Made by a program: the position numbers and the translations under genes. Of a stretch of DNA of 29,816 nucleotides, positions 4,078 through 27,223 are shown piece after piece. The notes under the pieces are model-generated. The model was not told the origin of the DNA, searched no databases, and was given only the letters and a program-made list of their open reading frames with translations. The DNA is from an uncultured Planctomycetia bacterium (lineage in GTDB: Bacteria; Omnitrophota; Gorgyraeia; JACOVV01): contig CAYJQR010000013.1 of NCBI GenBank assembly GCA_964372345.1, forward strand, positions 1 to 29,816, read 5' to 3'. The first letter of the stretch is position 1; each line of letters begins with the position of its first letter.

Positions 4078-4947
4078 GTGTTTCGGTTAATTCAAAAAAA
4101 CGCGCAGGTCGGGAAAGTGACACTTCCGTATGTCCCGGAAAAGACGCCGCCGCCGGAGGGGTTCATGGGAGCGCCGGAGATTGATCCGGCAAAATGCACC
4201 GGCTGCGGCAAGTGCGTGCCGGTTTGCCCTACCGACGCCCTGGCCATCGAAGATAAACCAGCCGAGAATCAAAGAATTTTCTTTCTCTCTTACGGAGATT
4301 GCATTTTCTGTGGCTTATGCGAACCGGCCTGCCCTTATCAGGCGGTCTCGTTTAAAGGAAAGTTTGAATTGGCCACGCAGGATAAGAAGGCCTTGAGCTT
4401 AGAATTCCCTTTTCAGCTGTCGCAATGCGCTAAAGATTCTGCTTTTATGCCGCGAGAAGCCCTTCCCATCAAAGAAAAACCGAGTACCACGCGGGAATTG
4501 GATAAAATGGGTGGACTTCTCAACGCCAAAATCAAAAAACTCTTTGGCCGTTCTCTGCATATCCGCGAAGTGGACGCCGGTTCCTGCAATGGGTGTGAGG
4601 TTGAAATCACAAATTTGTCCAATCCCATCTACGACGTCGAACGCTTCGGCATTCATTTTGTCGCCTCCCCCCGGCATGCCGACATGTTGCTGGTTACAGG
4701 GCCTGTTACCCGGCAGATGGAACTGGCGTTAGTAAAAACTTTCGAGGCAGCACCCGCGCCAAAATTAGTGGTCGCCTGCGGAGGGTGTGCTATCGGTGGA
4801 GGGATATTTAAGGGAAGCTACGCGGTTGTTGGAGGGGTTGACCGCGTTATTCCTGTGGATTGTTATATCCCCGGCTGTCCACCGCGGCCGGAAGCGATCC
4901 TGCATGGAATCTTTGTCGCCTTGGGTAAGTTGGCAAAAAAGGGTTGA
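4078..4947 (+). CDS. Fusion of 2x[4Fe-4S] ferredoxin (HycF/NuoI-like) and hydrogenase small subunit (HycG/NuoB-like)
   Basis: GTG start with an AGGAGG Shine-Dalgarno 6 nt upstream. Two ferredoxin CxxCxxCxxxCP motifs are present (CTGCGKCVPVCP, CIFCGLCEPACP). They are followed by the small-subunit cluster motifs GSCNGCE, ACGGCAIGGG and CYIPGCPP. Confidence 0.8.
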   Translation: MFRLIQKNAQVGKVTLPYVPEKTPPPEGFMGAPEIDPAKCTGCGKCVPVCPTDALAIEDKPAENQRIFFLSYGDCIFCGLCEPACPYQAVSFKGKFELATQDKKALSLEFPFQLSQCAKDSAFMPREALPIKEKPSTTRELDKMGGLLNAKIKKLFGRSLHIREVDAGSCNGCEVEITNLSNPIYDVERFGIHFVASPRHADMLLVTGPVTRQMELALVKTFEAAPAPKLVVACGGCAIGGGIFKGSYAVVGGVDRVIPVDCYIPGCPPRPEAILHGIFVALGKLAKKG

Positions 4948-7454: not shown

Positions 7455-7506
7455 CTAATCAGTATTATTTCGGTTGTCGTTAGTCGTTAACGAAGAAAGG
7501 ATATAC

Positions 7507-8424
7507 ATGGCAATACCAGATTTCCAATCAACCATGCTTCCACTGCTTCATTTTACAGCCGATGGGAGCGAACGGTCATCTCGAGAAGCAATCGAAGGGT
7601 TAGCTGAAAAATTCGGGCTTACGGATGCCGAAAGAAAAGAACTGTTGCCAAGTGGACAGCAATTTACTTTTGATAATCGGCTTAATTGGGCTCGAACCTA
7701 TATGAGCAAAGCCGGCCTGTTGGAACCGACACAACGCGGGTATTTCCGGATAACTCAACGTGGCAAGGAAGTACTTGCGAAAAATCCCTCTACGATTAAT
7801 GTAAAGTTTCTAGAACAATTCCCTGAGTTCATAGAATTCAGAACTAAACACCGAGAACAAAAAGAAACTAAAGCAGCGATCGAAACGGAAACCCTCCAAA
7901 CACCTGCCGAATTGCTTGAAACTGCGTATCAGAAACTTCACGAAGATCTGTCTGCCGAGCTTCTGAAGAACGTGAAGGAAGAATGTTCTCCTACTTTTTT
8001 TGAACGTCTTGTTATCGACCTTTTGGTAAAAATGGGCTATGGCGGCAACCGAAAGGAAGCAGGGAAAGCCATTGGACGGAGCGGCGATGAAGGAATTGAC
8101 GGAATCATCAACGAAGATCGTCTTGGGCTTGATGTCATCTACATTCAGGCGAAGCGATGGCAGGCGCCGGTCGGGCGTCCAGAAATTCAAAAATTCGCCG
8201 GCGCCCTACAAGGACATCGCGCAAAGAAAGGTATCTTTATCACAACTTCTGCCTTTACCAAAGAAGCCGAGGATTATGTCGCGAAAATCGATTCGAAGAT
8301 TGTCCTAATAGACGGCGAACAACTCGCTCAGTTCATGATTGATCACAACATTGGAGTAACTTCGGTTGCCTCATATGAAACCAAGAGGATCGACTCCGAT
8401 TACTTTGCCGAAGGGGCGGCGTAA
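7507..8424 (+). CDS. mrr: Mrr-family type IV (modification-dependent) restriction endonuclease
   Basis: N-terminal winged helix (MAIPDFQSTMLPLL...). Mrr catalytic core LVIDLLVKMGYGG...GRSGDEGIDGI...DVIYIQAKRW. A GAAAGGA Shine-Dalgarno sits 6 nt before ATG 7507. The in-frame upstream TTG at 7474 was rejected. Confidence 0.85.
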   Translation: MAIPDFQSTMLPLLHFTADGSERSSREAIEGLAEKFGLTDAERKELLPSGQQFTFDNRLNWARTYMSKAGLLEPTQRGYFRITQRGKEVLAKNPSTINVKFLEQFPEFIEFRTKHREQKETKAAIETETLQTPAELLETAYQKLHEDLSAELLKNVKEECSPTFFERLVIDLLVKMGYGGNRKEAGKAIGRSGDEGIDGIINEDRLGLDVIYIQAKRWQAPVGRPEIQKFAGALQGHRAKKGIFITTSAFTKEAEDYVAKIDSKIVLIDGEQLAQFMIDHNIGVTSVASYETKRIDSDYFAEGAA

Positions 8425-8457: not shown

Positions 8458-9222
8458 ATGTCTCAATACTACAACGCCAAACGGTCTAGAAATCTTTTTG
8501 ATCCAGAATCACGTGAACCATTCAGATTAAGCCGGACGAAAATTGAATTATTCATCGGTTGTCCGCGTTGTTTTTACCTTGATCGGCGACTAGGAATAGA
8601 TCGTCCTCCCGGCTTCCCATTTAATTTAAACTCGGCAGTAGACACCCTTCTCAAAAAAGAATTTGATCTCTATCGCGCCAAAGGGACTGCCCATCCCTTC
8701 ATGAAAACCTATGGAGTGGATGCTGTCCCTTTTCAGCACGAGAAAATCGAAGAATGGCGGGATGCTCGCAAACGAGGGATTACTTATTTACACCAACCTA
8801 CAAATCTTCTCATCACAGGCGGAGTGGATGACGTATGGATTAACCCTGACAGGGAATTAATCATTGTTGATTACAAAAGCACCTCAAAGAATGGAGAAGT
8901 AGACATAGGCGCCGATTGGCAGATGTCTTACAAGAGGCAAATGGAAGTCTACCAATGGCTGTTTAGGCGAAACAATTTCAAAGTCTCATCAACCGGATAT
9001 TTTGTGTATTGCAACGGGATTACAGATAAAGAATCCTTTAACAATAAACTGGAATTTAATATCAAGCTGATTCCTTACGAGGCAAATGACGCTTGGGTTG
9101 AGGAAACGATCCACGACATCCACAAATGTCTGTTGAGCCACAATATCCCTGATCTGGAAGAGGAATGCGATTATTGCCAGTATTATGATGCGCTGAGATC
9201 AGCAGATGTTTTGGTAAAATGA
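8458..9222 (+). CDS. Cas4/RecB-like PD-(D/E)XK nuclease with four-cysteine cluster
   Basis: The IIVDYKS stretch looks like a (D/E)xK core. Flanking CPRC (N-terminal) and CDYC (C-terminal) pairs resemble the Fe-S ligation pattern of Cas4/AddB-type nucleases. It lies 33 nt downstream of mrr. Confidence 0.65.
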   Translation: MSQYYNAKRSRNLFDPESREPFRLSRTKIELFIGCPRCFYLDRRLGIDRPPGFPFNLNSAVDTLLKKEFDLYRAKGTAHPFMKTYGVDAVPFQHEKIEEWRDARKRGITYLHQPTNLLITGGVDDVWINPDRELIIVDYKSTSKNGEVDIGADWQMSYKRQMEVYQWLFRRNNFKVSSTGYFVYCNGITDKESFNNKLEFNIKLIPYEANDAWVEETIHDIHKCLLSHNIPDLEEECDYCQYYDALRSADVLVK

Positions 9223-9269
9223 TTGATCTATGTGAAAAGGCTGGCTTTGGCCGAGAGACACCAAAATAG

Positions 9270-9392
9270 GAAGCGCTATCAAATATTTCTGAGTGCGGAT
9301 TATTCATAACACCCATAGAGTCCCTAGTCAAAATCGCTAAGACTCTTAAAAAACCCACGGCTTACTTCTTGGAGGATGAAAGAAATGAAAGG
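9270..9392 (+). pseudogene. Start-less 3' fragment of an XRE regulator gene (repeat copy B, displaced gene end)
   Basis: In frame it reads ...ITPIESLVKIAKTLKKPTAYFLEDERNERT*, compared with the intact XRE C-terminus SVETLVKIAKTLRKPTAYFLEDEGKV*. There is no start codon. DNA identity to 7372..7454 is about 88%. Confidence 0.55.
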
Positions 9393-9497
9393 ACATAAAG
9401 TTTAATCAGCTCGAATCGGTAAAAACGTTCTATTATACGTTTATTTGAAGACTTCCAAAGGGGCCGATTTGGGGGTGGAATTGATTTTCTCCAAGAG

Positions 9498-10748
9498 ATG
9501 GTGAAAGTTGGGAAGGCAATCCCGTCGGAGGACGAAGTGAGGAATCTTGAGTTACCAGGAGAAGGTCAATATAAACTGCCAAACGACACCGAGGTTTCCA
9601 ATGAGCTATTGCCGGATCTCCAAGAGAGTGAAGAACGCCAACGGTATTTAAAATTGGCATTAGCACTTCCAATCTCTGAAATATTATTTTCGGTGAGATC
9701 AAAAAATTGTTTAAAAAATCTAAGGATACAACATTTGAAAGATTTAGTTTTGTTGAGCAGAGATCAAATTTTATCCCAGAAGAATGCCGGGAAAAGAAGC
9801 CTAAAGGAGATGAGCGATTTCTTAAATCAGTTGGAACTCGATTTAGGAATGAATTTAACGTCCTCATTATTGAAAGCTATAGAATGGCAGATAAAGAGCG
9901 TTCGGGATCCCGAAAAGCTGATGGAGGATTTTCGTAATTCCTACCCTGAAAAAACCATTGTACTAAAAGAAGTCCGAATCCAAACCATTAAGCCTGAACG
10001 GATGGAATTTTATAAGCCTTGTTTTGAATTATACACGCATGGCGGGACGCTTCAATCTGTTGCTATGGCCATGAAATTGACGCGTGAAAGAATCCGACAG
10101 ATTTTGATAAAGGGGACTGCGTATAAGTTATTCGAGTATAATGGCCGTGAATATCCATATATTTTAAAAGCAAAACTACTTTCAGATTTGAGCAAATACC
10201 CAAGCATGAGTACGGTTTCCAAAATTAATAAAATATCAACGGTATATTTAAAAAGATTACTTCTTGCTTATCACATTACGTCTGAGCAAATGGAGGAATT
10301 TAAGGAAAGGTCCCGGAAGCAACAAGCTATAGAAGATTTCAACGCTGTGAGAGATCAACTTGGCCATAACCCAACGACAACGGAGTTGCAAGCAAATGGG
10401 GAATGGAGGTCTCTTGGAAATAGAATTAGACGGAATTGGGGTAATTTTCAAGAATTTCGGCAAGCGTTAAATATTCCGCCACCACCACCATTTGCTGAAG
10501 TAACCAAACGGTGGATCGAACACAGATCTCGTTTGGCTCTGATTCGGAGAATGCAAGATTTGGATTCAGTTAGAGATTGTCTCGAGAAGTTGGGACCCCT
10601 AAATACATCCGAAATTGCTAGGCGATGCCAATTGAAATCGATGAGAGCGTTTAAATTAACACAACTGCTCTTGGCAACGGGAGAAGTGTCACGTGACGGC
10701 GTGGGAAGCCAGACCAAATACAGAATAAGTAAGATCGGAGGGAGATAA
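9498..10748 (+). CDS. Multi-HTH DNA-binding protein: RNAP alpha-CTD-like domain + sigma-70 region-4-like HTH + HNH-associated-repeat-like motif
   Basis: LFSVRSKNCLKNLRIQHLKDLVLLSRDQILSQKNAGKRSLKEMSDFLNQLELDLGMNL parallels RpoA alpha-CTD ([57 protein letters not shown]). GGTLQSVAMAMKLTRERIRQI resembles sigma-70 region 4. LGHNPTTTELQANGEWRSLGNRIRRNWGNFQEF resembles the GRxPT...FGSW repeat. Its stop abuts the next gene's start. Confidence 0.6.
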   Translation: MVKVGKAIPSEDEVRNLELPGEGQYKLPNDTEVSNELLPDLQESEERQRYLKLALALPISEILFSVRSKNCLKNLRIQHLKDLVLLSRDQILSQKNAGKRSLKEMSDFLNQLELDLGMNLTSSLLKAIEWQIKSVRDPEKLMEDFRNSYPEKTIVLKEVRIQTIKPERMEFYKPCFELYTHGGTLQSVAMAMKLTRERIRQILIKGTAYKLFEYNGREYPYILKAKLLSDLSKYPSMSTVSKINKISTVYLKRLLLAYHITSEQMEEFKERSRKQQAIEDFNAVRDQLGHNPTTTELQANGEWRSLGNRIRRNWGNFQEFRQALNIPPPPPFAEVTKRWIEHRSRLALIRRMQDLDSVRDCLEKLGPLNTSEIARRCQLKSMRAFKLTQLLLATGEVSRDGVGSQTKYRISKIGGR

Positions 10749-12434
10749 ATGAAGATAATTACAAAAACGAAACTGCAAATCAAAGATCAGGGCGAGTTGC
10801 TAAACCAAATTGCAGGCACCTATAAAGACTTTTTTAGAGCGGCTATGGAGTACATCGATAATTCGGTTGATGCGGCTACCGGATTACAGCAAGATGGGAA
10901 GAAATTTTCTGCCAAAATTCATATAGAAGTCGACCCTGACAAGAAGACAGTCTCTTTTGCTGATAACTGTGGGGGAATGTCGCCTCAGGAATTGTGCGAG
11001 TTATTATCAAATGTGGGCCGGTCTAGAAAAAAGGCAGTTTCTTGGGCTAATGGACAATTTGGATTTGGCGTTCACGCCTTTAGAGCTTTTGCTAGGGAAG
11101 CTATTTTTATAAGTCGGAAGAAGAATTGTAAAGAAGCAATGATAAAGATAGATCGCACAGTCCATGAAAACCAAGATGTCCCATGTGTAGAAACGGATGT
11201 GAAACAGCTTAAGGAGCCGGGAACGCGGGTTATTATTTCTCGATTTGATTCACATGTTTTTCAAAAGGCCACTTTCGTCAAAACTTTAGCCGCTGAAGTC
11301 GAACATCATTTCGACGATGTCTTGAGGGCTAAATTAGCACGTATCTCTATTTCTGAGAAAGATAAAAGATCGCACGAATGTTCCCATTTCGATTTCGACT
11401 CGCTACCAGGTCCTGTTTTGAAAAAAACTTTTTCTTTGATGTCTGATGGAAAACAAAGCGAAATTGAAGTTGATTTAAAGGTTTTAGATCGTGTTCAAGA
11501 TAACAGATTCCCTGTTCTCACAAATAAATGTCGACGAGTTCAAAATATTTCTGATTTGAAAAGCTATAAAAACTTTTTGAGAACAAAGGGAGAGATAAGT
11601 TACATATGGAACAACCCTTTTGTGGTTGGCTCCATTGAAATTAACGGTTTTTGCTCTCCAAATTTAACCAGAGACGACTTAAAGGATTTAAAAGAACGCG
11701 AGCAACTGTACGAAAAGATATGCGAAGTACAGAATGATCTGAAGCACTTGATTGATGAAACGATGGATAAAAAAACTAGGGAATCATTTCGAAGAATTGG
11801 AAGTATAATGTCGGATTGCCTGGCTCAAATACTTAAAAATTTTAAGCTTGAATTCGAACAATTAGCTCCTTCAGGCATTACCGGGAATCTTGCGGAACAT
11901 ATTGAAGAAGGAAACGGGAAAATACCATTCGGCGGTGACGATGAGCCGGGTGGCGGTGGACCAGGTCCAAATGAAGAAGGTTCGGGGGGTAGACGATCTG
12001 ACGAAGGCAGATCAGGTGTTGGTAAAGATGAAAAAGGTGGCGGAGCTAATGATAAAAGAAAAACTTCTGGCCAAGGAGGAGCATCGACGGAAAAAATTAT
12101 TCAATCGCCTGGACCCAGGATCGAATTTCAAAATCATGCCGGAGAAGACAGAGTTATCGATTTAGGAAACTCCCTTATCGTCAACACACAGCATTCGGAT
12201 TTCATATTAAGGAATCCACGATCAACAGGTAAGATCAAATTCGACGTTAGGTTATTGAATTACGTCTCTCAAGTTGTGTCTCCATATTGTGTCCACAGAC
12301 TATTCGAGCGTAAAGGAAAAGTACCGTCCGTATCAGAAGTTGGGGCAAATGTAATTAATCTAAGTTTGAATCTCGAAAAAGAGTTGCTTAAAACCGTTTT
12401 GGGGACAGAAATAGATACAATGGTATATGCCTGA
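10749..12434 (+). CDS. GHKL (Bergerat-fold, MORC/MutL-like) ATPase with Gly-rich low-complexity segment
   Basis: N-box EYIDNSVDA, G1 box DNCGGM and G2 box GQFGFGVHA are present. A GGAGGGA Shine-Dalgarno precedes the ATG. Residues about 395-450 form a G/D/E/K-rich disordered stretch. Confidence 0.8.
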   Translation: MKIITKTKLQIKDQGELLNQIAGTYKDFFRAAMEYIDNSVDAATGLQQDGKKFSAKIHIEVDPDKKTVSFADNCGGMSPQELCELLSNVGRSRKKAVSWANGQFGFGVHAFRAFAREAIFISRKKNCKEAMIKIDRTVHENQDVPCVETDVKQLKEPGTRVIISRFDSHVFQKATFVKTLAAEVEHHFDDVLRAKLARISISEKDKRSHECSHFDFDSLPGPVLKKTFSLMSDGKQSEIEVDLKVLDRVQDNRFPVLTNKCRRVQNISDLKSYKNFLRTKGEISYIWNNPFVVGSIEINGFCSPNLTRDDLKDLKEREQLYEKICEVQNDLKHLIDETMDKKTRESFRRIGSIMSDCLAQILKNFKLEFEQLAPSGITGNLAEHIEEGNGKIPFGGDDEPGGGGPGPNEEGSGGRRSDEGRSGVGKDEKGGGANDKRKTSGQGGASTEKIIQSPGPRIEFQNHAGEDRVIDLGNSLIVNTQHSDFILRNPRSTGKIKFDVRLLNYVSQVVSPYCVHRLFERKGKVPSVSEVGANVINLSLNLEKELLKTVLGTEIDTMVYA

Positions 12435-13321
12435 TGAAAGCTAATGTTCAGACTATAATTAAAGCGATATCGGATTCAAATAATAGATATCGGGATTCCT
12501 CCTCAGATACAAGAACCAAGCTTGAAGCTCTGTGGAATATTGGAGATTGTCTTGTGCGGCTTGGCGTAAATAAGCCGCATTCGATGGGATGGATCGTACA
12601 AAAAGAGACAAAAGGTCTCATTAAGAGGCCAACAATATTTCGAAGTTTCAAAATTCGTCAAATATGGAACTCAAAGGACGATCTTCTGCGTGATATCGGG
12701 AATATTAAAGGGGTCAACTTCTTGATAGACATGTTGCCGTTAATCGATCCTCGGCAAGAAGTTCGAAAGAAGCTTAAGGAAGATGAAATTAAACAAATCT
12801 ATAAGAAGGCATGTGCTAGTTCTGTGGGTCAATTCAAAAGTTATATTGTAGAATTGAAAACTAAATATTCTCACGATAGGCTTGGCAAACGGCTAGATAA
12901 GTCGAAACACTTGGTAGAAATAGAATTTGTAACTAAGAATTTCGGCTCATTGCAACGTTTTCTTCTAGGTCTCATCCAGCAAAAGGAAAGTACTGGGCGT
13001 GATAGATTCAGACAAGAAATCAAGCGTGAGGAATTTCGCGCTTTTTCCAATATGTGTATTTCCCTAACGACCAAAAACAATATCCGTTTATATAAGAAGG
13101 CAGGGGTTTCTCTTTCGAATACAGAGAATCAGCAGTTTAAAGTTTTGTACGATTATTTTTACTCAATTCTCAATAAAGCAGCTGACACGGAACGCGCAAG
13201 AGTTCGTCGCTTGATTTCTCCAGAAGCTTTTGCGCAAATGTCTGATATTATCTCTTCGATTCAAAATGAAGAAAGTTTAGACGACTTTAGACTTAGACAA
13301 CAATTATCAATAGGGCTGTGA
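12434..13321 (+). CDS. Hypothetical protein (295 aa), candidate effector/nuclease partner of the GHKL-Dam operon
   Basis: The start overlaps the upstream stop by 1 nt (TGATG) and the stop lies 1 nt before the methyltransferase start. No family motif was recognised. Confidence 0.6.
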   Translation: MKANVQTIIKAISDSNNRYRDSSSDTRTKLEALWNIGDCLVRLGVNKPHSMGWIVQKETKGLIKRPTIFRSFKIRQIWNSKDDLLRDIGNIKGVNFLIDMLPLIDPRQEVRKKLKEDEIKQIYKKACASSVGQFKSYIVELKTKYSHDRLGKRLDKSKHLVEIEFVTKNFGSLQRFLLGLIQQKESTGRDRFRQEIKREEFRAFSNMCISLTTKNNIRLYKKAGVSLSNTENQQFKVLYDYFYSILNKAADTERARVRRLISPEAFAQMSDIISSIQNEESLDDFRLRQQLSIGL

Positions 13322-13322
13322 C

Positions 13323-14222
13323 ATGCAACCATTTCTAAAATGGGCTGGTGGAAAACGTTGGCTGATCCCCAAGATTAAAGACAGCATCCCTCCGTTCAGA
13401 ACTTATTTTGAACCATTCTTAGGAAGTGCCGCCCTGTTCTTTGCATTGGAACCTAAGTCGGCAATTTTATCGGACACCAATCCGGAACTCATAGGTTGTT
13501 ACAGAGTTATCAAGAACCATTGTGAGTCTATGATCAAAGTATTAGAGAGATTAAAGATTACAAAATCGGATTATTACGCAATTCGAGAAAAATTTAATAG
13601 TGGGAACGAACCAATTAAGAAAGCAGCATACTTCATTTATCTGAACAAAACTTGCTGGAATGGTCTTTACCGCGTGAATAACCACGGCAAATTTAACGTG
13701 CCAGTCGGTACGCACCTTCAGCGTGGGTATAAGGTCTTCGACGCGGATCATTTGAAGAATGCTAGTCGTCTTTTAAATCGGGCCATAATTAAACGGTGCG
13801 ACTTTGAAGAAGCAACAAAGGATGCTAGAAACAAAGATCTCGTATACTTTGATCCTCCTTATATAACAACGCATTTAAAGAATGGTTTTATCAAATATAA
13901 CTCCGTCTTATTTCACCAGTCTGATGAATTGCGATTGGCAAAAGTGGCGGAAAAACTGGCTAAGCGTAGAATTCAAGTAATTCTAAGTAATGCCGCTCAC
14001 CCACTAATAAAACAACAATATAACGGATGTTTTTACAAAACGGAAATATTACGGCCTAGCCTAATTGCTGGGGATCCCTCGAAAAGGACAAGGTTTCTTG
14101 AGCTTCTTGTTACTAGTTTTCCACTGACTATAGAGACCAGAGAATATTCGGAGCGCCAAGATGAAGCTATTCCTAAAGATGTACGGTATAAGCCTTTTTA
14201 TAATCCAAAGTGTAAATTTTGA
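13323..14222 (+). CDS. Dam-family (D12 class, alpha-group) N6-adenine DNA methyltransferase
   Basis: N-terminal LKWAGGKRWLIPKI...FEPFLGSAALFF matches the AdoMet motif. The catalytic motif IV is VYFDPPYITT, compared with E. coli Dam VYCDPPYAPL. Confidence 0.85.
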   Translation: MQPFLKWAGGKRWLIPKIKDSIPPFRTYFEPFLGSAALFFALEPKSAILSDTNPELIGCYRVIKNHCESMIKVLERLKITKSDYYAIREKFNSGNEPIKKAAYFIYLNKTCWNGLYRVNNHGKFNVPVGTHLQRGYKVFDADHLKNASRLLNRAIIKRCDFEEATKDARNKDLVYFDPPYITTHLKNGFIKYNSVLFHQSDELRLAKVAEKLAKRRIQVILSNAAHPLIKQQYNGCFYKTEILRPSLIAGDPSKRTRFLELLVTSFPLTIETREYSERQDEAIPKDVRYKPFYNPKCKF

Positions 14223-14539: not shown

Positions 14540-15127
14540 ATGGATATTAATGATATCCAAGAGCTGCATTTTATTACGGATATAAAGAATGTTGATTCGA
14601 TTATGCGAGAAGGTATTCTGTCGCATAACAAGGCGGGTAGAATTCCTCATCGCTCGATTGCGGAGCAGGGTGTTCAAGAGCGCAGGCAAAATAAAAAAAT
14701 TCCCGGCACAAACAAACGTTTGCATGATTATACAAATCTGTATTTCAATGCCCATAATCCCATGCTTAGTGCGAGAAGGCAGCTGAATGATTCGATTTGC
14801 GTCTTGCGCATCAATAAACATGTTTTGTCTATAGAAGGGGTTATCATCACAGATCAAAATGCAAGCAGGGATTGTTGGTTCAAGCCGGTATCCGAGGGAT
14901 TACCATTACTGAAGCATGAAGAGATTTTTGCTGAATTTTGGATCAATAGAGAAGATCCAATGGAAGAATATCGATTGAAGGGCATAAAATGCGCTGAAGT
15001 CTTAGTGCCAAAGTGCGTTCATCCATCACACATTTTATCGGCATACGTAGCCAATAATACTGCGCTGAGCGATTTTAAAAAGGCGTCGACTTTATCTGTG
15101 CAAATTAATGGGAATTTGTTTTTCTAA
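14540..15127 (+). CDS. darT: DarT, ssDNA thymidine ADP-ribosyltransferase toxin (DUF4433)
   Basis: LHFITDIKNVDSIMREGILSHN...RSIAEQGVQERRQNKKIP...LHDYTNLYFNAHNPMLSA...CAEVLVPKCVHPSHI follows the DarT pattern (hFTHi.NL.sIL, HDYVPFYF, catalytic-Glu EvLV). A macrodomain gene lies directly downstream. Confidence 0.7.
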   Translation: MDINDIQELHFITDIKNVDSIMREGILSHNKAGRIPHRSIAEQGVQERRQNKKIPGTNKRLHDYTNLYFNAHNPMLSARRQLNDSICVLRINKHVLSIEGVIITDQNASRDCWFKPVSEGLPLLKHEEIFAEFWINREDPMEEYRLKGIKCAEVLVPKCVHPSHILSAYVANNTALSDFKKASTLSVQINGNLFF

Positions 15128-15138
15128 AGGGGGGTATC

Positions 15139-16251
15139 ATGGAAATCTTAATCGGGGATATATTCAACTCTAAAGCGCAGACATTAATTAACACTGTGAA
15201 TTGTGTCGGCGTTATGGGCAAGGGAATTGCGGCCGAATTTAAAAAACGCTATCCGGAGATGTTTGATGATTACATTTCACGATGTCAAAAAAGAGAAGTC
15301 AAGCCCGGCATTCCTTATTTGTTTAAAACCTCGTCATTGTTTGTTCCACAAGTCGTCAATTTCCCTACAAAGACCGATTGGCGCGCGGCATCTCATGTTG
15401 AGGACATAGAGAAGGGTTTGAAGATTCTTGTGTCAAAATACAAAGAATGGGGGGTTAAGTCAATAGCCGTTCCCCCATTGGGTTGTGGCAACGGGCAGTT
15501 ATTATGGGAAACCGTAGGACCTTTGATTTATAAATATCTGTCCAAATTGGATATCCCGGTTCAAATGTATGCTCCATATGGCGCCCCGTCAGTTCAATTG
15601 ACGGAAAAATATCTTTCCCGGGCGTTTGACTTGAAGGAATCCAAGTCAGAAGATGCTATTCTGCAAAAGATGAACCCTGCTTGGGCTTCACTGGTCGAGA
15701 TAGTGTATCGTCTCGAAAAACAGACTTACCATTTGCCTGTAGGCAGAACTATTTTTCAGAAGATAGCATATGTCGCTACAGCGCTTGGCATCCCTACTGG
15801 GCTGGGCCATGTTCGTGGACCCTATGGCCCATATTGTAAGGCACTGGATGATGTTAAGAAAAGATTGTCAAACGCGGGATTGTTGCAGGAAGAAAGACTC
15901 GGGCCTATGTTTCAACTTGTTCCGGGACATGCTTATGAAAAGGATCGTTCAAAATATCAGGACAGCTTTCGAAAATGGGGCAGCCTGATCGATAAAACAG
16001 TTGACCTTTTTCTTAGGCTAGATACCCATAAGGCAGAGATTGTAGCTACCGTTTTGTATACAGAGAGGACAATAAATAAAGGGCGCACGACCGAGAAAGA
16101 TGTCCTTAATGAGGTTGTGAAATGGAAACAAAAACGCCGTCCTCCGCTCAATGAAATAGAAGTGGCCGAAACAATTCGTAATTTAGGAATACTAAAATGG
16201 TTTGATTTGAAACCATCAACCGATATGCCAATTCAGGACGATTGGGTCTAA
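15139..16251 (+). CDS. darG: DarG, macrodomain DNA ADP-ribosylglycohydrolase antitoxin
   Basis: N-terminal macro domain LINTVNCVGVMGKGIAAEFKKRYPEMFDDY...VVNFPTKTDWRAASHVEDIEKGL...IAVPPLGCGNGQLLWETVGP closely parallels DarG (VNTVNTVGVMGKGIALQFK...PLGCGNGGL). A strong AAGGGGGG Shine-Dalgarno is present. It lies 11 nt after darT. Confidence 0.75.
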   Translation: MEILIGDIFNSKAQTLINTVNCVGVMGKGIAAEFKKRYPEMFDDYISRCQKREVKPGIPYLFKTSSLFVPQVVNFPTKTDWRAASHVEDIEKGLKILVSKYKEWGVKSIAVPPLGCGNGQLLWETVGPLIYKYLSKLDIPVQMYAPYGAPSVQLTEKYLSRAFDLKESKSEDAILQKMNPAWASLVEIVYRLEKQTYHLPVGRTIFQKIAYVATALGIPTGLGHVRGPYGPYCKALDDVKKRLSNAGLLQEERLGPMFQLVPGHAYEKDRSKYQDSFRKWGSLIDKTVDLFLRLDTHKAEIVATVLYTERTINKGRTTEKDVLNEVVKWKQKRRPPLNEIEVAETIRNLGILKWFDLKPSTDMPIQDDWV

Positions 16252-16606
16252 TTACACGAAAGTTTAATAAACAGCAAAGTTCCTGCCTCTTTCGAGCGAA
16301 AAAGTACCAGGCGGTTATCCACAGGGACAACGATGGTTATGAGATTTTACGGTAATCGGCTTCTTTGAGAATAAAGACGTGATGTTGAAGCACCAGTTTA
16401 AAGAGAATCGGTTCCGATTTTAATGCATTAAAGATCCTTCAATCATTAAAGTGTTAAGGAATCTTCCGAAGATCAAAAACCCAACCGTCTTTTTCCCCTA
16501 AAACGTCCCATCAGGGCTAAAACCATCAAAAAATTCAAATGGGAAATAGTGGACGGTACCGTTGCCTTTTGCTAAACTATTTTTTTTGGAAGGGTCCAAA
16601 ATCAGG

Positions 16607-17776
16607 ATGCCAAATGAGTCAAAGGATTGCGAAAAATCAACCCCGAAACAAATGCATTTTAAGATACCCAAACTAGATAAGTTGGTTGGGATTATCGATG
16701 ACGTTATCCCCGCAGGCGAGACTGGCAGAATCATGGTCAAAGGGTTCCTGACATCGGATGACCCAAAGTTCCATATTGCAGCCGACCACATCTCCGCGAT
16801 TCTTCTAAACAAGCACGTCCAGACAGACTCGGTAAATACATTCTTGGCCCTCCTGCATCAGGATCAGTCTGCTGATGTATACGTAAACGACATCGCTATT
16901 GGCATTCAGGTACATGCCAAACGATCACTGGTCAAGGGGGAAGCCGTGAGAGTGAACGACATCGTCGACATTAAAGCTCTGCGTTTTCTGGAAATCAAAG
17001 TTGAGCAAACGGACAATATCATATTTCTGTTCAAAAAAGGGTGGAAGTTCGGGTTCTTCCTCAACTTGCAACAGTGGGAGGGAAAGAATAAATTGGATGT
17101 TGCGAGTCTTGAGAGGGAACTTGGGGATTACTACAAATACCTGGCTTTTGAGAAAGAATTGAAGGTTATAGAGGACAAGCAGTCGTTTGAGGAGTTATTT
17201 GATGATGGGTGGTTCCCGTTTATCCAGTTGCTCGGAGGAGAGTATCCAGAGCTTGGTCACATCTACCAGACAGGTGAGAAATCAGGTGAACCAATGGAGC
17301 AATTCCTGAATAAGTTCGGTCAGGAACGGATAGCCCGTATGAAGCAGAACTGGTGGGATTGTCCCGTGTTCGCTGCCAAGAAAGTAATCATCGAAGCGGC
17401 TCTTTCCTCGTATCTTTTGATGACCGGCACAGGATTTATCAACTGCATCAAGAATCTCTATTCCGAGATTGAAGGAGTTATCCGAGTGAGCTGTCACCGG
17501 AAGACTGGTCAAAAACCCACTTTTTCAAAATTGGTGACCTTCCTGGAACACAAGGCAGCAAATAAGTTCACATCTATCAACTCCCTTGCTTTTCCACCGA
17601 TATTTGCAAAGTATCTCAGAGAGGTGATTTTCAAGGATTTCGACCTTTCAACAGGGCAAGTAGACATATCACGGCACTCAGTGGTTCATGGTGTTGCCGA
17701 GGCTGTTGCATATTCGCGAGCTAAAGCTCTTCAGTCGATTCTCACACTCGATCAAATTTACTTTTACCTCATATGA
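16607..17776 (+). CDS. Hypothetical protein (~390 aa), possible C-terminal HEPN-like Rx4H motif
   Basis: Long ORF in the AT-rich island. The first ATG in the frame was chosen. No clear family match. ISRHSVVHG near the C-terminus fits the HEPN Rx4-6H pattern; this is weak evidence. Confidence 0.55.
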   Translation: MPNESKDCEKSTPKQMHFKIPKLDKLVGIIDDVIPAGETGRIMVKGFLTSDDPKFHIAADHISAILLNKHVQTDSVNTFLALLHQDQSADVYVNDIAIGIQVHAKRSLVKGEAVRVNDIVDIKALRFLEIKVEQTDNIIFLFKKGWKFGFFLNLQQWEGKNKLDVASLERELGDYYKYLAFEKELKVIEDKQSFEELFDDGWFPFIQLLGGEYPELGHIYQTGEKSGEPMEQFLNKFGQERIARMKQNWWDCPVFAAKKVIIEAALSSYLLMTGTGFINCIKNLYSEIEGVIRVSCHRKTGQKPTFSKLVTFLEHKAANKFTSINSLAFPPIFAKYLREVIFKDFDLSTGQVDISRHSVVHGVAEAVAYSRAKALQSILTLDQIYFYLI

Positions 17777-17814
17777 TGGGAGGAGTAACATAATAGTTAG
17801 GGGGAAAATTGCTA

Positions 17815-18336
17815 ATGAGTTACGTGATGGTAGATGTTGAGGCGGATGGGCCAATCCCGGGAGATTATTCAATGATCTCTTTTGGAGCGGTTATTGTTGA
17901 ATCAGCGCTATCGAAAACCTTTTATGGGAAATTAAAACCGATCTCAGGAAAGTGGGAACCGGAGGCATTAAAGGTGAGTAGATTGACTCGTGAAGAAACG
18001 TTAAGTTTTGAAGATCCGAAATCCGTTATGGAAAGGTTTGCTGTTTGGATCAGGGAAAGCTCAAAAGACAGGCCGATCTTCATATCGGACAACAATGGTT
18101 TCGATTGGCAATTCATTAACTGGTATTTTCACCATTTCTTGGGGCAGAATCCATTTGGTTTTTCATCAATGAATCTGGGGTCGCTCTATAAGGGGCTTGT
18201 TCGGGACACGTTCAAAAACTTTAAGCATCTGCGTAAAACAAAACACACGCATCATCCTGTTGATGACGCGAAAGGTAACGCGGAAGCGTTATTAGAACTG
18301 AATCGAGAGTTTGGTCTGAAAATGCAGTTTGAATGA
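17815..18336 (+). CDS. Stand-alone DEDDh (DnaQ-like) 3'-5' exonuclease, 173 aa
   Basis: Exo I motif VMVDVEADGP, Exo II ISDNNGFDWQFINW and Exo III HTHHPVDDAKGNAEALLEL (H-x4-D) are present. An AGGGGGA Shine-Dalgarno lies 8 nt upstream. It sits 38 nt after the preceding gene. Confidence 0.75.
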   Translation: MSYVMVDVEADGPIPGDYSMISFGAVIVESALSKTFYGKLKPISGKWEPEALKVSRLTREETLSFEDPKSVMERFAVWIRESSKDRPIFISDNNGFDWQFINWYFHHFLGQNPFGFSSMNLGSLYKGLVRDTFKNFKHLRKTKHTHHPVDDAKGNAEALLELNREFGLKMQFE

Positions 18337-19784: not shown

Positions 19785-20609
19785 ATGAAAACTTACCAAT
19801 CGTTGCTAACGTTACCTTTTATCTTATTAGGAGCTGTTTCCTTAACTGGCTGCGCGGTGATCGAAGACGGCCAGACCGGCATCCGTAAAACCATGGGGAA
19901 GATTGAAGATCAGCCGCTTTCAAGCGGTATCCAGGCCAATATTCCGTTCTTCGCGGAAGTAGAGACTTGGAACACCAAGGTTCAAGAGGTCAAAGAGAGC
20001 GCCGACGTCCCAAGTTCCGAAGGACTGATTGTTCAGTTGGATATCAGCTTGCTCTTTCGTATCGAACCGCAAAATGCTCCTTTAGTCCGTAAGACTATCG
20101 GCCCTTATTACCGGCAGACGGTCATCGAGCCCTACATTCGCGACGCCGTCCGCTTAGTAGTCAGCGCGTATCCGGTGAAAGCGACGTATAGTGAAGAAGG
20201 AAGAGCGAAGATTTCTAAAGAGGTCCTTGCTCATTTAAAGGAAAAATTGGAGCCCAGGGGAATTACCGTTGGAGACGTCCTGTTGCGGGATATTCGCTTG
20301 CCACAGCGGTTCAAGGAAAGTATCGAGGCCAAATTGCAGGCGGAACAACAAGCGCTCCAAAAGGAGTTTGAGCTGCTGAAAGCCAAGAAAGACGCCGAGA
20401 TTGAGATCGCCAGAGCCGAGGGAACCGCCAAGGCGCAGGAGATTATTCAGGCGACTCTTTCTCCCCAGTATCTTCAATATCTCTGGGTGAAAAACTTGCA
20501 GGATAATCAGAATGTGACTTATGTGGCGACTGAGGCCAACATGCCGCTCTTTAAATCAGTGGAGGGGGCTTACAAGATCGGGGCGCGGCCTTCTAAATCC
20601 GGAGAATAG
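19785..20609 (+). CDS. SPFH/Band-7 (HflK/C-like) domain lipoprotein
   Basis: A GGGGAG Shine-Dalgarno precedes the ATG. Lipobox-type signal MKTYQSLLTLPFILLGAVSLTGC. SPFH core ...DGQTGIRKTMGKI...GLIVQLDISLLFRIEPQNAPLV.... The C-terminus is coiled-coil-like and E/K/A-rich. The longer upstream start (19605) would read through two tRNA genes and was rejected. Confidence 0.8.
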   Translation: MKTYQSLLTLPFILLGAVSLTGCAVIEDGQTGIRKTMGKIEDQPLSSGIQANIPFFAEVETWNTKVQEVKESADVPSSEGLIVQLDISLLFRIEPQNAPLVRKTIGPYYRQTVIEPYIRDAVRLVVSAYPVKATYSEEGRAKISKEVLAHLKEKLEPRGITVGDVLLRDIRLPQRFKESIEAKLQAEQQALQKEFELLKAKKDAEIEIARAEGTAKAQEIIQATLSPQYLQYLWVKNLQDNQNVTYVATEANMPLFKSVEGAYKIGARPSKSGE

Positions 20610-20613
20610 GGGC

Positions 20614-21093
20614 TTGGCTTTTTTAGATCTTTCTCAGATCGATCAACATTACATGCGCGAGGCGCTCAAGCAGGCCAAGCGAGCGGGAGAGTCAGGAGAG
20701 GTTCCGATCGGCGCTGTGATCGTGCGTAAGAACCAAATCATTGCTCGTGCCTACAATCAAGTTGAATTGTTGCGTGACCCAACCGCCCACGCGGAGATGA
20801 TCGCCATTACTCAGGCGGCCGATCATTTCAAAAATGAACGGCTCTTGGACACGTGGATTTACAGCACCATCGAACCGTGCGCCATGTGCGCCGGGGCGAT
20901 GGTGCTGGCACGGATCAGCCGGCTCGTTTACGGCGCTGCTGACCCTAAGGCCGGCGCGTGCGGCTCGGTGATTAATGTGGTCCGGACCGGAAAACTGAAT
21001 CACCAGCTTGAAATCACGCGCGGCGTCTTAGAGGAAGAGTGCCGGCTGATGATTCAGGCGTTTTTCCAAGAGCGGAGACGGAAAACCAAGTGA
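20614..21093 (+). CDS. tadA: tRNA-specific adenosine deaminase TadA
   Basis: CDA zinc motifs HAEMIAI and PCAMCAGAM are present. N-terminal ...DQHYMREALKQAKRAGESGEVPIGAVIV follows the TadA pattern. Starting at TTG 20614 (a GGAG lies upstream) or ATG 20653 is equally plausible. The 20521 start overlaps the upstream gene and was rejected. Confidence 0.75.
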   Translation: MAFLDLSQIDQHYMREALKQAKRAGESGEVPIGAVIVRKNQIIARAYNQVELLRDPTAHAEMIAITQAADHFKNERLLDTWIYSTIEPCAMCAGAMVLARISRLVYGAADPKAGACGSVINVVRTGKLNHQLEITRGVLEEECRLMIQAFFQERRRKTK

Positions 21094-25213: not shown

Positions 25214-25420
25214 CACTGAATGAGAGGAGGCTTCAGGTTCCACCCCAGTCACCGACCCAGAGGGTCCCTGAATTTTTGGTACTCAACAAAGCCAGGATTT
25301 GAGGTAGATAGAGTTGCCGTGCTGGGTTTTGAAAATCAGTGAGATAAAAGGGCGAAGAGGAAGGGTCAGAAAAAATGCGGCCTACCCCTTGACAACGGGA
25401 AATCATAGGGTAGACTTGTG

Positions 25421-27223
25421 ATGGCTTGTATGAAGCTGCCAACGGGGTTCACTGAATATTTACTGCCTCTTTACCTTGAAACACAAGCCTATTCCCATGG
25501 TAAACTTTCTCTAATTGCCAATACCGACATACCTAAGGAAAGCGTCTTAAAGAAGATTTCTACGGTGATCAAAATGAGAAATCTCATCCAGTGGAATCAT
25601 TGGTTCAATCAACTCATTACGGGGATGCTTATTGTTTCCTGTTGCGAACAAACAGGTAATCTTTACTTACCTATAGAGCAATTATCCCCACCACAAATGA
25701 CGAAGAGGGAAGTTTTTCAAAATCAAGATCCAAGGAATTCATTAGAGATAACGACGTTATTAAGCGATCTTGCGCAAAAATTTTCAACATCGTCTTATCC
25801 TATCCAAAAATATGAAACATTGATTAAACTATTAGCCAGCCCCAATTCACTTGGAATTGATGTCTTAAAGAATGCATTTGACCGAGACCCCAACGGTTTC
25901 ATTCACGCTATCCATTATATTCACGGTAATGTCTACTCTTTTAAAACGTTACTCAATACCTTTGGAATTGAAACTGTCAGAGAGGCTTTCAGCAATGATC
26001 CAAGTGGATTCGCTAATTCCATAAAAACCCTTTCCAATATGGGTAAGAGCCGATTACAATTCATGAAAGTATTTCACAAATTAGCAAATAGTCTTGTCGG
26101 CATCTCATTTTTAAGAAATTCTTTTGCGCAATATCCTTATCCTCTTACACTCGCTCTTGCGTTATTGAGAAGTTCTATAGATTCACTTGTGGAATATATC
26201 AATGAAAACGGCACGGATATCAATCCCTTACTCAGTAAGAAAAATATTAAACTAGCGATTAATAATGATGAGGTTTCTTCTCTTAATACAACCATGGGGT
26301 TAATCAAGTTACTACATATCAGTGCGCAAAATGTCATTATCGGTTATTCTACAGAGGTAACGCAATCTCTTGCAGAGGAGAGATTTCCCCCTATTCAGTA
26401 CCAAGTGAAACCTTATTTTCCACTTAAAAATTCTAGCTCACAAGGACATTTGATCTTTGTGGAGTATACAGAACATGTTTTTACAAAACCTCGAACATTG
26501 GGTCTTTCACCGGATCCCTTTAAGTATTCTTTACCCTCTTTTGCTTCCGAAGAAAGCCGTTCTTCACTTCGAAATTCGATGGCGATAGAAAATCGAAAAA
26601 TAATTGTAGTAACAAGTCCTCAACCGAGTGAAGCTCAGATTTTCCAAGAAGCTTATAGAAAAATATTTGGAGATCTACCCACTGCCGAACGCCCCCTTGT
26701 GATCCTGGCCCCTCGTTACCCGAACCCTACACTAGTCTCATTACTGGAGTCAAATGGATTTAAGGCGCAAAATCGTGATACAGAAGAAGAACCTCTCTCA
26801 TTACTTGGAGAGCAGGACTTTGTTGTTTTAAATACATACGGTGAATTACTAAAGTTCTTTACGGTGGCAGACCTTGCTATTGTAGGACATGATCGCAATC
26901 TTTTTGAACCCGCCAGCCAAAGAGTACCGATTCTCTATTTCGGCGGTCATTGGTCTAATAACCAAACAGCTAAAAGAGTGCTCGATGAATCTGGTGGAGC
27001 GATGGAAATTAACCCTCGGTACCTTGACAAACAGATTTTGACTATTCTGGAAGAACCAGAAGATATTAAAGCAGGTCTTCAATCCGCTGTGAAGCGTTTC
27101 GAACAACAAATCTTTCCATCGGCTCAACTATACACTCTATTAATGCTGACATCTGTCATCTTCGAATATACGGAACAATCCTCTGTAGCTAGTCAAGAAA
27201 ATGCTTCCCTTAGAGCGTTGTGA
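25421..27223 (+). CDS. AT-rich 600-aa protein: N-terminal novel ~40-aa tandem repeats fused to a Kdo-transferase (GT30)-like C-terminal domain
   Basis: The C-terminal ...NTYGELLKFFTVADLAIVGH...NLFEPASQRVPILYFGGHW... matches the KdtA/WaaA C-domain (DTMGEL..LY..ADLAFVGGSL...NPLEPAA.G.PVL.GP). Three repeats are LGIDVLKNAFDRDPNGF / FGIETVREAFSNDPSGF / VGISFLRNSFAQYPYPL. Confidence 0.55.
   Translation: MACMKLPTGFTEYLLPLYLETQAYSHGKLSLIANTDIPKESVLKKISTVIKMRNLIQWNHWFNQLITGMLIVSCCEQTGNLYLPIEQLSPPQMTKREVFQNQDPRNSLEITTLLSDLAQKFSTSSYPIQKYETLIKLLASPNSLGIDVLKNAFDRDPNGFIHAIHYIHGNVYSFKTLLNTFGIETVREAFSNDPSGFANSIKTLSNMGKSRLQFMKVFHKLANSLVGISFLRNSFAQYPYPLTLALALLRSSIDSLVEYINENGTDINPLLSKKNIKLAINNDEVSSLNTTMGLIKLLHISAQNVIIGYSTEVTQSLAEERFPPIQYQVKPYFPLKNSSSQGHLIFVEYTEHVFTKPRTLGLSPDPFKYSLPSFASEESRSSLRNSMAIENRKIIVVTSPQPSEAQIFQEAYRKIFGDLPTAERPLVILAPRYPNPTLVSLLESNGFKAQNRDTEEEPLSLLGEQDFVVLNTYGELLKFFTVADLAIVGHDRNLFEPASQRVPILYFGGHWSNNQTAKRVLDESGGAMEINPRYLDKQILTILEEPEDIKAGLQSAVKRFEQQIFPSAQLYTLLMLTSVIFEYTEQSSVASQENASLRAL

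Follow-up and report, generated by a model that had tools for sequence, protein, structure and literature searches.

We investigated a 416-residue protein encoded at positions 9498..10748 (+) of a 29,816-nt stretch of DNA from an uncultured bacterium (contig CAYJQR010000013.1 of assembly GCA_964372345.1; the whole stretch is referred to as the window) together with the genes that follow it. With slightly better than even confidence we interpret this protein, the target, as the DNA-targeting subunit of a methylation-linked GHKL ATPase system, and neither as a mimic of RNA polymerase (RNAP) nor as a simple regulator. This reading draws on the invariant gene order of the cassette, the tight coupling to the GHKL gene, the conservation of DNA-contacting residues, the swappable N-terminal head of the protein, the recurrence of this head next to genes for DNA modification and ATPases, and the location in a genomic island. 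The open reading frame (ORF) was present exactly as a first-pass annotation of the DNA had described it, and its product is a chain of predicted DNA-binding modules: a C-terminal domain of the RNAP alpha subunit (alpha-CTD), a helix-turn-helix (HTH) of the sigma-70 region 4 type (sigma-4), a second HTH, a unit resembling the HNH repeat and a C-terminal winged helix. The combination of an alpha-CTD and a sigma-4 HTH in one protein, which was the central claim of that annotation, is real according to Pfam, PDB and family-wide matches. Three features go beyond it, namely the C-terminal winged helix (residues ~345-412), the further HTH (~224-258) and residues 1-23, which are without homology to the relatives. 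The features of the target are as follows:

9498..10748, + strand: target ORF, 416 amino acids (aa), multi-module DNA-binding protein, first cassette gene in the window
9498..9566, + strand: non-homologous new 5' end, residues 1-23 (tblastn and blastn against relatives)
9627..9860, + strand: RpoA alpha-CTD domain, residues 44-121, equal to module 2 of full-length relatives (Pfam, NCBIfam and PDB matches)
10029..10121, + strand: sigma-70 region-4.2-type HTH, residues 178-208, with recognition helix T195-R-E-R-I-R-Q201 (Pfam and family profile)
10167..10271, + strand: second HTH-like unit, residues ~224-258 (structure model and weak profile match)
10317..10466, + strand: HNH_repeat-like three-helix unit, residues 274-323, GHxPTTTELQ...W..FR (sub-threshold Pfam matches)
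10530..10733, + strand: C-terminal winged HTH, residues ~345-412

Searching Pfam, we found RNA_pol_A_CTD (PF03118) on residues 54-110 (E=4.1e-13; 49.3 bits, well above the gathering cutoff of 23.8), and a phmmer search of the PDB with the target returned 46 chains, nearly all of them alpha-CTDs. The best match was E. coli 1coo (E=1e-8, residues 44-121), and this alignment reproduces the E. coli alpha-CTD sequence given in the first-pass annotation. A structural superposition had also been proposed there; the domain is compact and helical, contains two helix-hairpin-helix motifs and superposes on alpha-CTD structures that have been solved. The NCBIfam rpoA models scored 25-62 bits against cutoffs of 228-523, in the CTD region only, and Pfam gave no match to the alpha N-terminal assembly and dimerization domain in the target. 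We then compared the residues that contact DNA or protein partners. The minor-groove contacts of E. coli have equivalents in R67 (R265), N70 (N268), C71 (C269), G98 (G296), R100 (K298) and S101 (S299). Conservation was tallied over 65 modules, 37 of them module 2 and 28 module 1: the R265 equivalent is kept in 36/37 and 27/28, G296 in 36/37 and 28/28, K298 (as K or R) in 30/37 and 23/28, and S299 (as S or T) in 34/37 and 27/28, respectively. In E. coli RpoA the 261 determinant contacts sigma-70 and the 287 determinant contacts CAP; their equivalents (S60/E61/L63 and S87-I91 in the target) are variable across the family. Because the contact residues are conserved, the partner determinants are variable and the head is swappable (see below), we regard DNA binding, and not general mimicry of an RNAP partner, as the selected function. 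DNA binding by the alpha-CTD, as first suggested, is plausible given nearly invariant minor-groove contacts, while the companion idea that the domain senses or sequesters RNAP partners fared badly: the 261 and 287 determinants vary, and Xre-like HTH repeats substitute for the domain in sister cassettes.

The sigma-type HTH was also among the profiles proposed for searching. In the target alone Sigma70_r4 stays just under the Pfam cutoff (21.2 bits versus 24.1, residues 179-206), but across the relatives it is well matched, in 12/12 close and 27/28 core-only relatives (best E=1.3e-10). A profile of relatives without alpha-CTDs, searched against the PDB, matched region 4.2 of RpoS, SigA and RpoD, best with RpoS (E=5e-6), so that the assignment to sigma-70 region 4.2 appears to hold at the level of the family only. 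The recognition helix [TS]-R-E-R-[VI]-R-Q is kept in 132-148 of 157 sequences per position (R196 in 132, E197 in 138, R198 in 144, R200 in 147 and Q201 in 148) and is under strong purifying selection. Sigma70_r2, the part of sigma factors that binds core polymerase and recognizes the -10 box, was matched neither in the target nor in 12 relatives. Sigma70_r3 was additionally matched in 6 of 28 distant core-only relatives (best E=3.7e-6), which hints that the core family may descend from the half of a sigma factor that comprises regions 3-4. For residues ~224-258, a predicted model of the target places helices at 224-233, 237-243 and 248-257, and in a profile search the segment weakly matched a designed HTH repeat protein; it is presumably a further HTH. 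The HNH_repeat resemblance noted in the first-pass annotation stays below the Pfam threshold. PF18780 reached 15.3-16.1 bits in the target versus a cutoff of 26, and E<=0.1 at a constant position in 17 of 40 relatives (7/12 close, 10/28 core-only; best 4.6e-4). The unit is strongly conserved across the family, and its identity as an HNH repeat (residues 274-323) is suggestive, not proven. Neither the target nor any gene of the cassette contains an HNH nuclease domain, and no HNH nuclease lies in the vicinity.

The homology to the RpoA alpha-CTD and to sigma-70 region 4.2 is true homology, with the 265 determinant and the TRERIRQ helix conserved in the target. Unlike the holoenzyme subunits, however, the target has no alpha N-terminal domain, no sigma region 2 and no conserved 261/287 determinants, and since it lacks these it is not an RNAP subunit. 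For annotation the lesson is that 'alpha-CTD-containing protein' here means neither an RNAP subunit nor an RNAP regulator.

The genes that follow the target in the cassette are:

10749..12434, + strand: GHKL (HATPase_c_3) ATPase, 561 aa, with intact Bergerat motifs, Gly-rich linker and conserved C-terminal domain
12434..13321, + strand: p295, a 295-aa all-alpha protein
13323..14222, + strand: Dam-family (D12 class) N6-adenine DNA methyltransferase, closest to M.DpnII and E. coli Dam

In the window the GHKL start codon abuts the target stop codon, and across the loci the junction between the two genes is either abutting or a 4-nt overlap. Full-length relatives of the target are rare: a search of 5.8 billion proteins returned 12, and wherever the contig is long enough, GHKL, p295 and Dam come after them. 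We annotated 37 sources with custom hidden Markov models (HMMs) and observed that the order core protein, GHKL, p295, Dam is invariant wherever the sequence extends far enough, with the Dam gene two genes downstream of GHKL in all complete loci. The flanks of the cassettes are unrelated to each other and comprise tyrosine and serine recombinases, Mrr, Thoeris, SMODS/SLATT, DpnII and HinfI restriction-modification (R-M) genes, HigB and toxin-antitoxin pairs.

The ATPase matches HATPase_c_3 with 47.8 bits, and its motifs EYIDNSVDA, DNCGGM and GQFGFG are invariant among the relatives. Its body is divided from a conserved C-terminal domain by the glycine-rich linker, a low-complexity stretch (GGDDEPGGGGPGPNEEGSGG...GGG; window 11930-12090, residues ~395-445) that is present in all relatives. 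For this C-terminal domain a profile of 11 sequences gave no PDB or Pfam match even at E<=10. We had considered it as an endonuclease of the MutL_C type, from a likeness of QNHAGED...TQH to the motif DQHAxxE, and dropped this candidate when the profile found nothing. p295 belongs to a family of 144 clusters, nearly all exactly 295 aa long and at least 47% identical, which lead to the same cassette again; for p295 itself, no match was obtained in Pfam, in the PDB or by structure. The methylase most resembles M.DpnII (E=3e-47) and E. coli Dam (E=1e-35), and since DpnM and Dam are GATC enzymes, GATC is its likely specificity. No nuclease or helicase is recognizable within the cassette.

An exhaustive profile search returned 172 representatives at E<=1e-30. 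In most of them the match is confined to profile positions ~200-448, which span the sigma-4 HTH through the C-terminal winged helix; judged by this coverage, that part is the core which defines the family. The N-terminal part comes in two classes. Full-length relatives carry two alpha-CTD modules and are preceded by a small gene, small70 (class A). In class B cassettes (L013, L020, L022, L023, L033 and P0012) the same core, GHKL, p295 and Dam are found, and the N-terminus consists of two to three tandem Xre-like HTH repeats instead of alpha-CTDs. From this swap it follows that the alpha-CTDs are an exchangeable DNA-binding head and do not define the family. An independent variant, L006/L007, has no small70 and keeps only half of alpha-CTD module 1, and a shortened form with a single alpha-CTD may be viable or tolerated given this example.

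small70 encodes a highly conserved basic protein of 70-74 aa (...KRDRFKRLAEQRTNAVLxKLKxLGNCxNRSAYEY...) without a Pfam match. The gene stands ahead of all cassettes in which the first protein contains two alpha-CTDs; class B cassettes, L006/L007 and the window lack it. At the class A loci, 31-45 nt upstream of small70, we observed a sigma-70-like promoter in which a palindrome lies at the -10 box or directly follows it. The palindrome reads CTATTATAATAG in L001, L005 and L016 and CTATTACAATAG in L003, and L012 and L028 have different, longer palindromes upstream of small70; in L012, L016 and L028 they are individually significant (reached by 0-2 of 200 shuffles). No palindrome was found in the class B loci or in the window. 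The palindrome is operator-like. The sites are:

L001 4179-4391, L003 9779-9991, L005 2667-2879 (unannotated), L008 251-463 and L012 4740-4961: small70
L016 ~4690-4710, L001 ~4130-4150 and L005 ~2620-2640: promoter and palindrome

Next, we compared the copy in the window with L016, the closest intact cassette. By blastn, window 9567-14220 corresponds to L016 5135-9787 with 84% identity, ending abruptly on both sides, and by tblastn the protein homology to the relatives begins at target residue 24. The allele in the window is 5'-truncated at 9566/9567. It has lost the promoter/operator, small70 and alpha-CTD module 1. What is left, 393 codons of the target and the three genes after it, is intact and full length and shows no frameshifts relative to L016. 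Residues 1-42 of the target are predicted to be disordered (predicted local distance difference test score, pLDDT, <50). A scan of 9150-10800 for promoters and terminators yielded nothing above the shuffled expectation, and the class A operator motif is absent from the window. At 9330-9395 an Xre-like HTH gene has left a stranded C-terminal end (...KIAKTLKKPTAYFLEDERNERT*) without a start, which marks rearranged DNA upstream of the breakpoint. This peptide was considered as a remnant of small70 and rejected, as it has no similarity to small70; likewise, no remnant of alpha-CTD module 1 in another upstream frame was found by tblastn, and this candidate was rejected as well.

In the mechanism that we propose, the target, together with p295, would load or position a dimer of the GHKL ATPase on DNA. 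The alpha-CTD or alpha-CTDs would provide minor-groove or AT-tract contacts of low specificity, to which the HTH modules would add specificity. The Dam-type methylase, probably at GATC, would mark self DNA, and the machine would act only on unmarked incoming DNA. By analogy, the target could be the functional counterpart of BrxA or of the segment of PglW that combines an alpha-CTD with three winged HTHs. Because no nuclease is recognizable in the cassette, the effector step would be either a cryptic activity of p295 or of the GHKL C-terminal domain, or a non-cleaving block by clamping or compaction, similar to MORC or BREX. Several points weigh against this proposal. We infer the physical interaction between target and GHKL from the coupling of their genes, and an HTH-rich protein encoded at the start of an operon is often no more than a regulator. 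Viral contigs yielded no relative of p295, species-representative genomes contain only two loci (in metagenome-assembled genomes of Nitrospira and WOR-3), and PADLOC lacks models for three of the four cassette proteins (target, GHKL and p295), with GHKL and p295 unmatched even at E<=10. Furthermore, the activity of the truncated allele in the window is uncertain and it may be inactive.

That last point leads to the view that the gene in the window is a decaying remnant, in which a rearrangement removed promoter, small70 and first alpha-CTD, and translation from a fortuitous ATG leaves the ORF, perhaps even the whole cassette, nonfunctional here. We consider this somewhat doubtful, and the estimate is orthogonal to the preferred reading and to the other two explanations discussed below. 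The abrupt start of homology to the closest relative at 9567, the disordered residues 1-42, the stranded Xre-like tail and the upstream region without above-chance promoter-like site, palindrome or small70 are all in line with decay; however, 393 codons and three further genes at 84% DNA identity to an intact cassette without a single frameshift are not, the independent small70-less variant L006/L007 with one alpha-CTD suggests that a short form may be viable, and read-through from the upstream Cas4-like gene is possible. Another explanation is that the target is the transcription factor of the cassette, either an autoregulator or a sigma/alpha-like activator or repressor at UP and -35 elements, which times methylase and effector in the manner of R-M controllers. 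Housekeeping sigmas contact the -35 box through the TRERIRQ residues of region 4.2, and the same residues are found in the sigma-4 helix of the target; moreover, the protein is made only of DNA-binding modules, its gene lies at or near the operon head, and class A cassettes have a sigma-70-like promoter and a palindrome. Known controllers, however, are far smaller than a protein of 416-480 aa with five or six modules, the target gene is translationally coupled to GHKL, and the head recurs as a fusion to large enzymes as well as beside dnd genes and helicase/SMC sets. The target also lacks sigma region 2 and so cannot work as a sigma factor. The palindrome occurs together with small70, not with the core protein, and because class B cassettes keep the core protein while lacking both, small70 with its palindrome is the better candidate for the controller. 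This co-occurrence weakens the suggestion of the first-pass annotation that the large protein merely regulates the operon, and we regard a role as transcription factor as unlikely.

The tandem alpha-CTD and sigma-4 head could also mimic RNAP, as a decoy or guard that senses phage attack on the polymerase (ADP-ribosylation of R265, or proteins binding the alpha-CTD or sigma-4), or as a competitor on the UP and -35 elements of strong phage promoters. In full-length relatives, sigma-4 is indeed preceded by exactly two alpha-CTDs, and it is with these parts that the holoenzyme reads upstream promoter DNA. Both modules keep the R265 equivalent almost without exception, and small70, which strictly co-occurs with the alpha-CTD class, might speculatively be a partner of the alpha-CTDs. 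On the other hand, R265 conservation is explained equally well by DNA binding, the 261/287 partner surfaces are not conserved, ordinary HTH repeats replace the alpha-CTDs in sister cassettes with the same GHKL, p295 and Dam, and the allele in the window has only one alpha-CTD, all of which makes mimicry highly improbable. In full-length members the two alpha-CTDs and the TRERIRQ-type sigma-4.2 helix would reproduce, in one polypeptide, the holoenzyme surface that reads UP elements and the -35 box. One elaboration, which we consider very unlikely, is that such a head finds strong UP-element promoters on unmethylated DNA, where the GHKL ATPase clamps or compacts the DNA in a MORC-like silencing without cleavage, or that it acts as a decoy detecting phage factors that modify or bind the alpha-CTD or sigma-4.

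Returning to the proposed targeting subunit, we looked for the same head in other proteins. The claim that an alpha-CTD outside RpoA is unusual turned out to be overstated: alpha-CTDs outside RpoA are common, with several unrelated non-RpoA architectures found here in addition to the published case of PglW. One family of 646 aa, encoded directly after dndB-C-D-E, contains two alpha-CTDs and a sigma-4 HTH (31.2 bits, above the cutoff):

L009 9001-10941 (also in L010 and L011): 646-aa Dnd-adjacent protein

Its head is collinear with that of the target (BLASTP E=5e-13 over ~260 residues). Like the target, these and other proteins with alpha-CTD arrays and sigma-4 lie beside DNA-modification genes and ATPases, but they have another C-terminal half without the core of HNH-repeat-like unit and winged HTH, and their partners are either dndBCDE or a set of helicase, small ORF and SMC-like ATPase. 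The latter set was observed in L037 (1404-9310), where an 1181-aa protein with three alpha-CTDs and sigma-4 comes first and a DEAD/SWI2-SNF2 helicase, then a 66-aa ORF and then an SMC_N/AAA_23 ATPase come after it, a trio that resembles the set facing the Dnd-adjacent gene. There, the 646-aa protein gene faces divergent genes for a helicase and for proteins of 56, 666 and 167 aa, with DarT nearby. Arrays of 4-11 alpha-CTD copies occur in P0244, P0289, P0291, P0276, P0224 and P0307, some with a ResIII helicase or HARE-HTH, and a separate family of ~455 aa combines TPR with two alpha-CTDs (P0017-P0040).

For comparison with known systems we considered BREX, MORC, Mza and R-M controllers. PglW of BREX type 2 contains an RpoA alpha-CTD-like domain followed by three winged HTH modules that parallel BrxA (Nucleic Acids Research, 2026; PMC12839542). 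Relative P0009 matched the PADLOC model of PglW from alpha-CTD to sigma-4 (E=7e-7), although the protein in the window itself does not reach this model. PglW/BrxA and the target share an alpha-CTD-like domain with several HTHs or winged HTHs and a setting of methylation-based, nuclease-poor defence. In contrast, PglW has a NERD nuclease, tandem kinase domains and inactive STAND domains, none of which is present in the target, and its BREX type 2 neighbors PglZ, BrxC and PglX do not occur in the window; the target is a stand-alone protein whose partners are GHKL, p295 and a methylase of the Dam class, not the PglX class. GHKL ATPases of the MORC and paraMORC type have been described in R-M operons (Iyer, Abhiman and Aravind 2008; PMC2292703). 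As in the cassette, HATPase_c_3 proteins with intact motifs are found there beside a DNA methylase in mobile defence contexts, but they are associated with nuclease or helicase genes, which the cassette does not contain. The Mza system includes MzaA, a sigma-70-family protein, and a MutL-like ATPase, and resembles the cassette in that a protein with a sigma-type HTH is encoded ahead of a GHKL gene; MzaA and the target gave only weak matches at the sigma-4 helix (E=0.02). R-M controller (C) proteins are small (~70-100 aa) dimeric HTH proteins that bind a palindromic C-box at their own promoter, whereas the target has 416 aa and several modules and the palindrome tracks small70.

Thus, neither the domain combination nor the occurrence of alpha-CTDs in defence proteins is new in kind. 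An alpha-CTD in a defence protein is already on record; a stand-alone protein of this type with GHKL, p295 and Dam partners is not. Our literature searches (on the cassette, on alpha-CTDs in defence and on Mza) found no description of the cassette, and the set of small70, multi-HTH protein, GHKL, p295 and Dam with its two-class targeting subunit is apparently undescribed. If the proposed reading is correct, it would be a methylation-linked defence or epigenetic cassette new to the literature, in which a GHKL ATPase is combined with a protein of unknown fold, no nuclease is visible and the DNA-targeting subunit is built from recycled promoter-recognition domains of RNAP. It would be the third context, after BREX-2 PglW and the Dnd-adjacent family, in which an alpha-CTD/sigma-type head accompanies immunity by DNA modification, and three such contexts suggest a general targeting module for modification-based immunity. 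With its four to five genes, the cassette would also offer a compact bacterial model for studying the targeting of MORC-like GHKL ATPases to DNA.

The defence setting assumed in the first-pass annotation is supported. The operon-like cassette (39-41% GC) lies in a low-GC island of ~7.5-18 kb (39-45% GC) within a backbone of 50-52% GC that carries hydrogenase/complex-I-like genes, dnaX and recR. DarT is a thymidine ADP-ribosyltransferase acting on single-stranded DNA, and DarG is its macrodomain antitoxin. The defence genes around the cassette are:

7474-8424: Mrr type IV restriction enzyme
8458-9222: Cas4-like PD-(D/E)XK nuclease, stand-alone
14540-16251: DarT/DarG pair, intact, directly downstream of the cassette

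A homologue of this Mrr gene (71% DNA identity) flanks the L005 cassette on the opposite side. Also inside the island, a 404-aa ORF without family match is followed by an exonuclease of the RNase T/DEDD type (175 aa) at 16562-18336, and the two may form a further pair of defence genes. At 25500-27000, a second patch of low GC (38%) spans a 601-aa ORF (25418-27223) without family match. In DNA of backbone GC, the 190-aa deaminase of the MafB19-like/CMP-dCMP type at 20521-21093 is probably a housekeeping tRNA or nucleotide deaminase.

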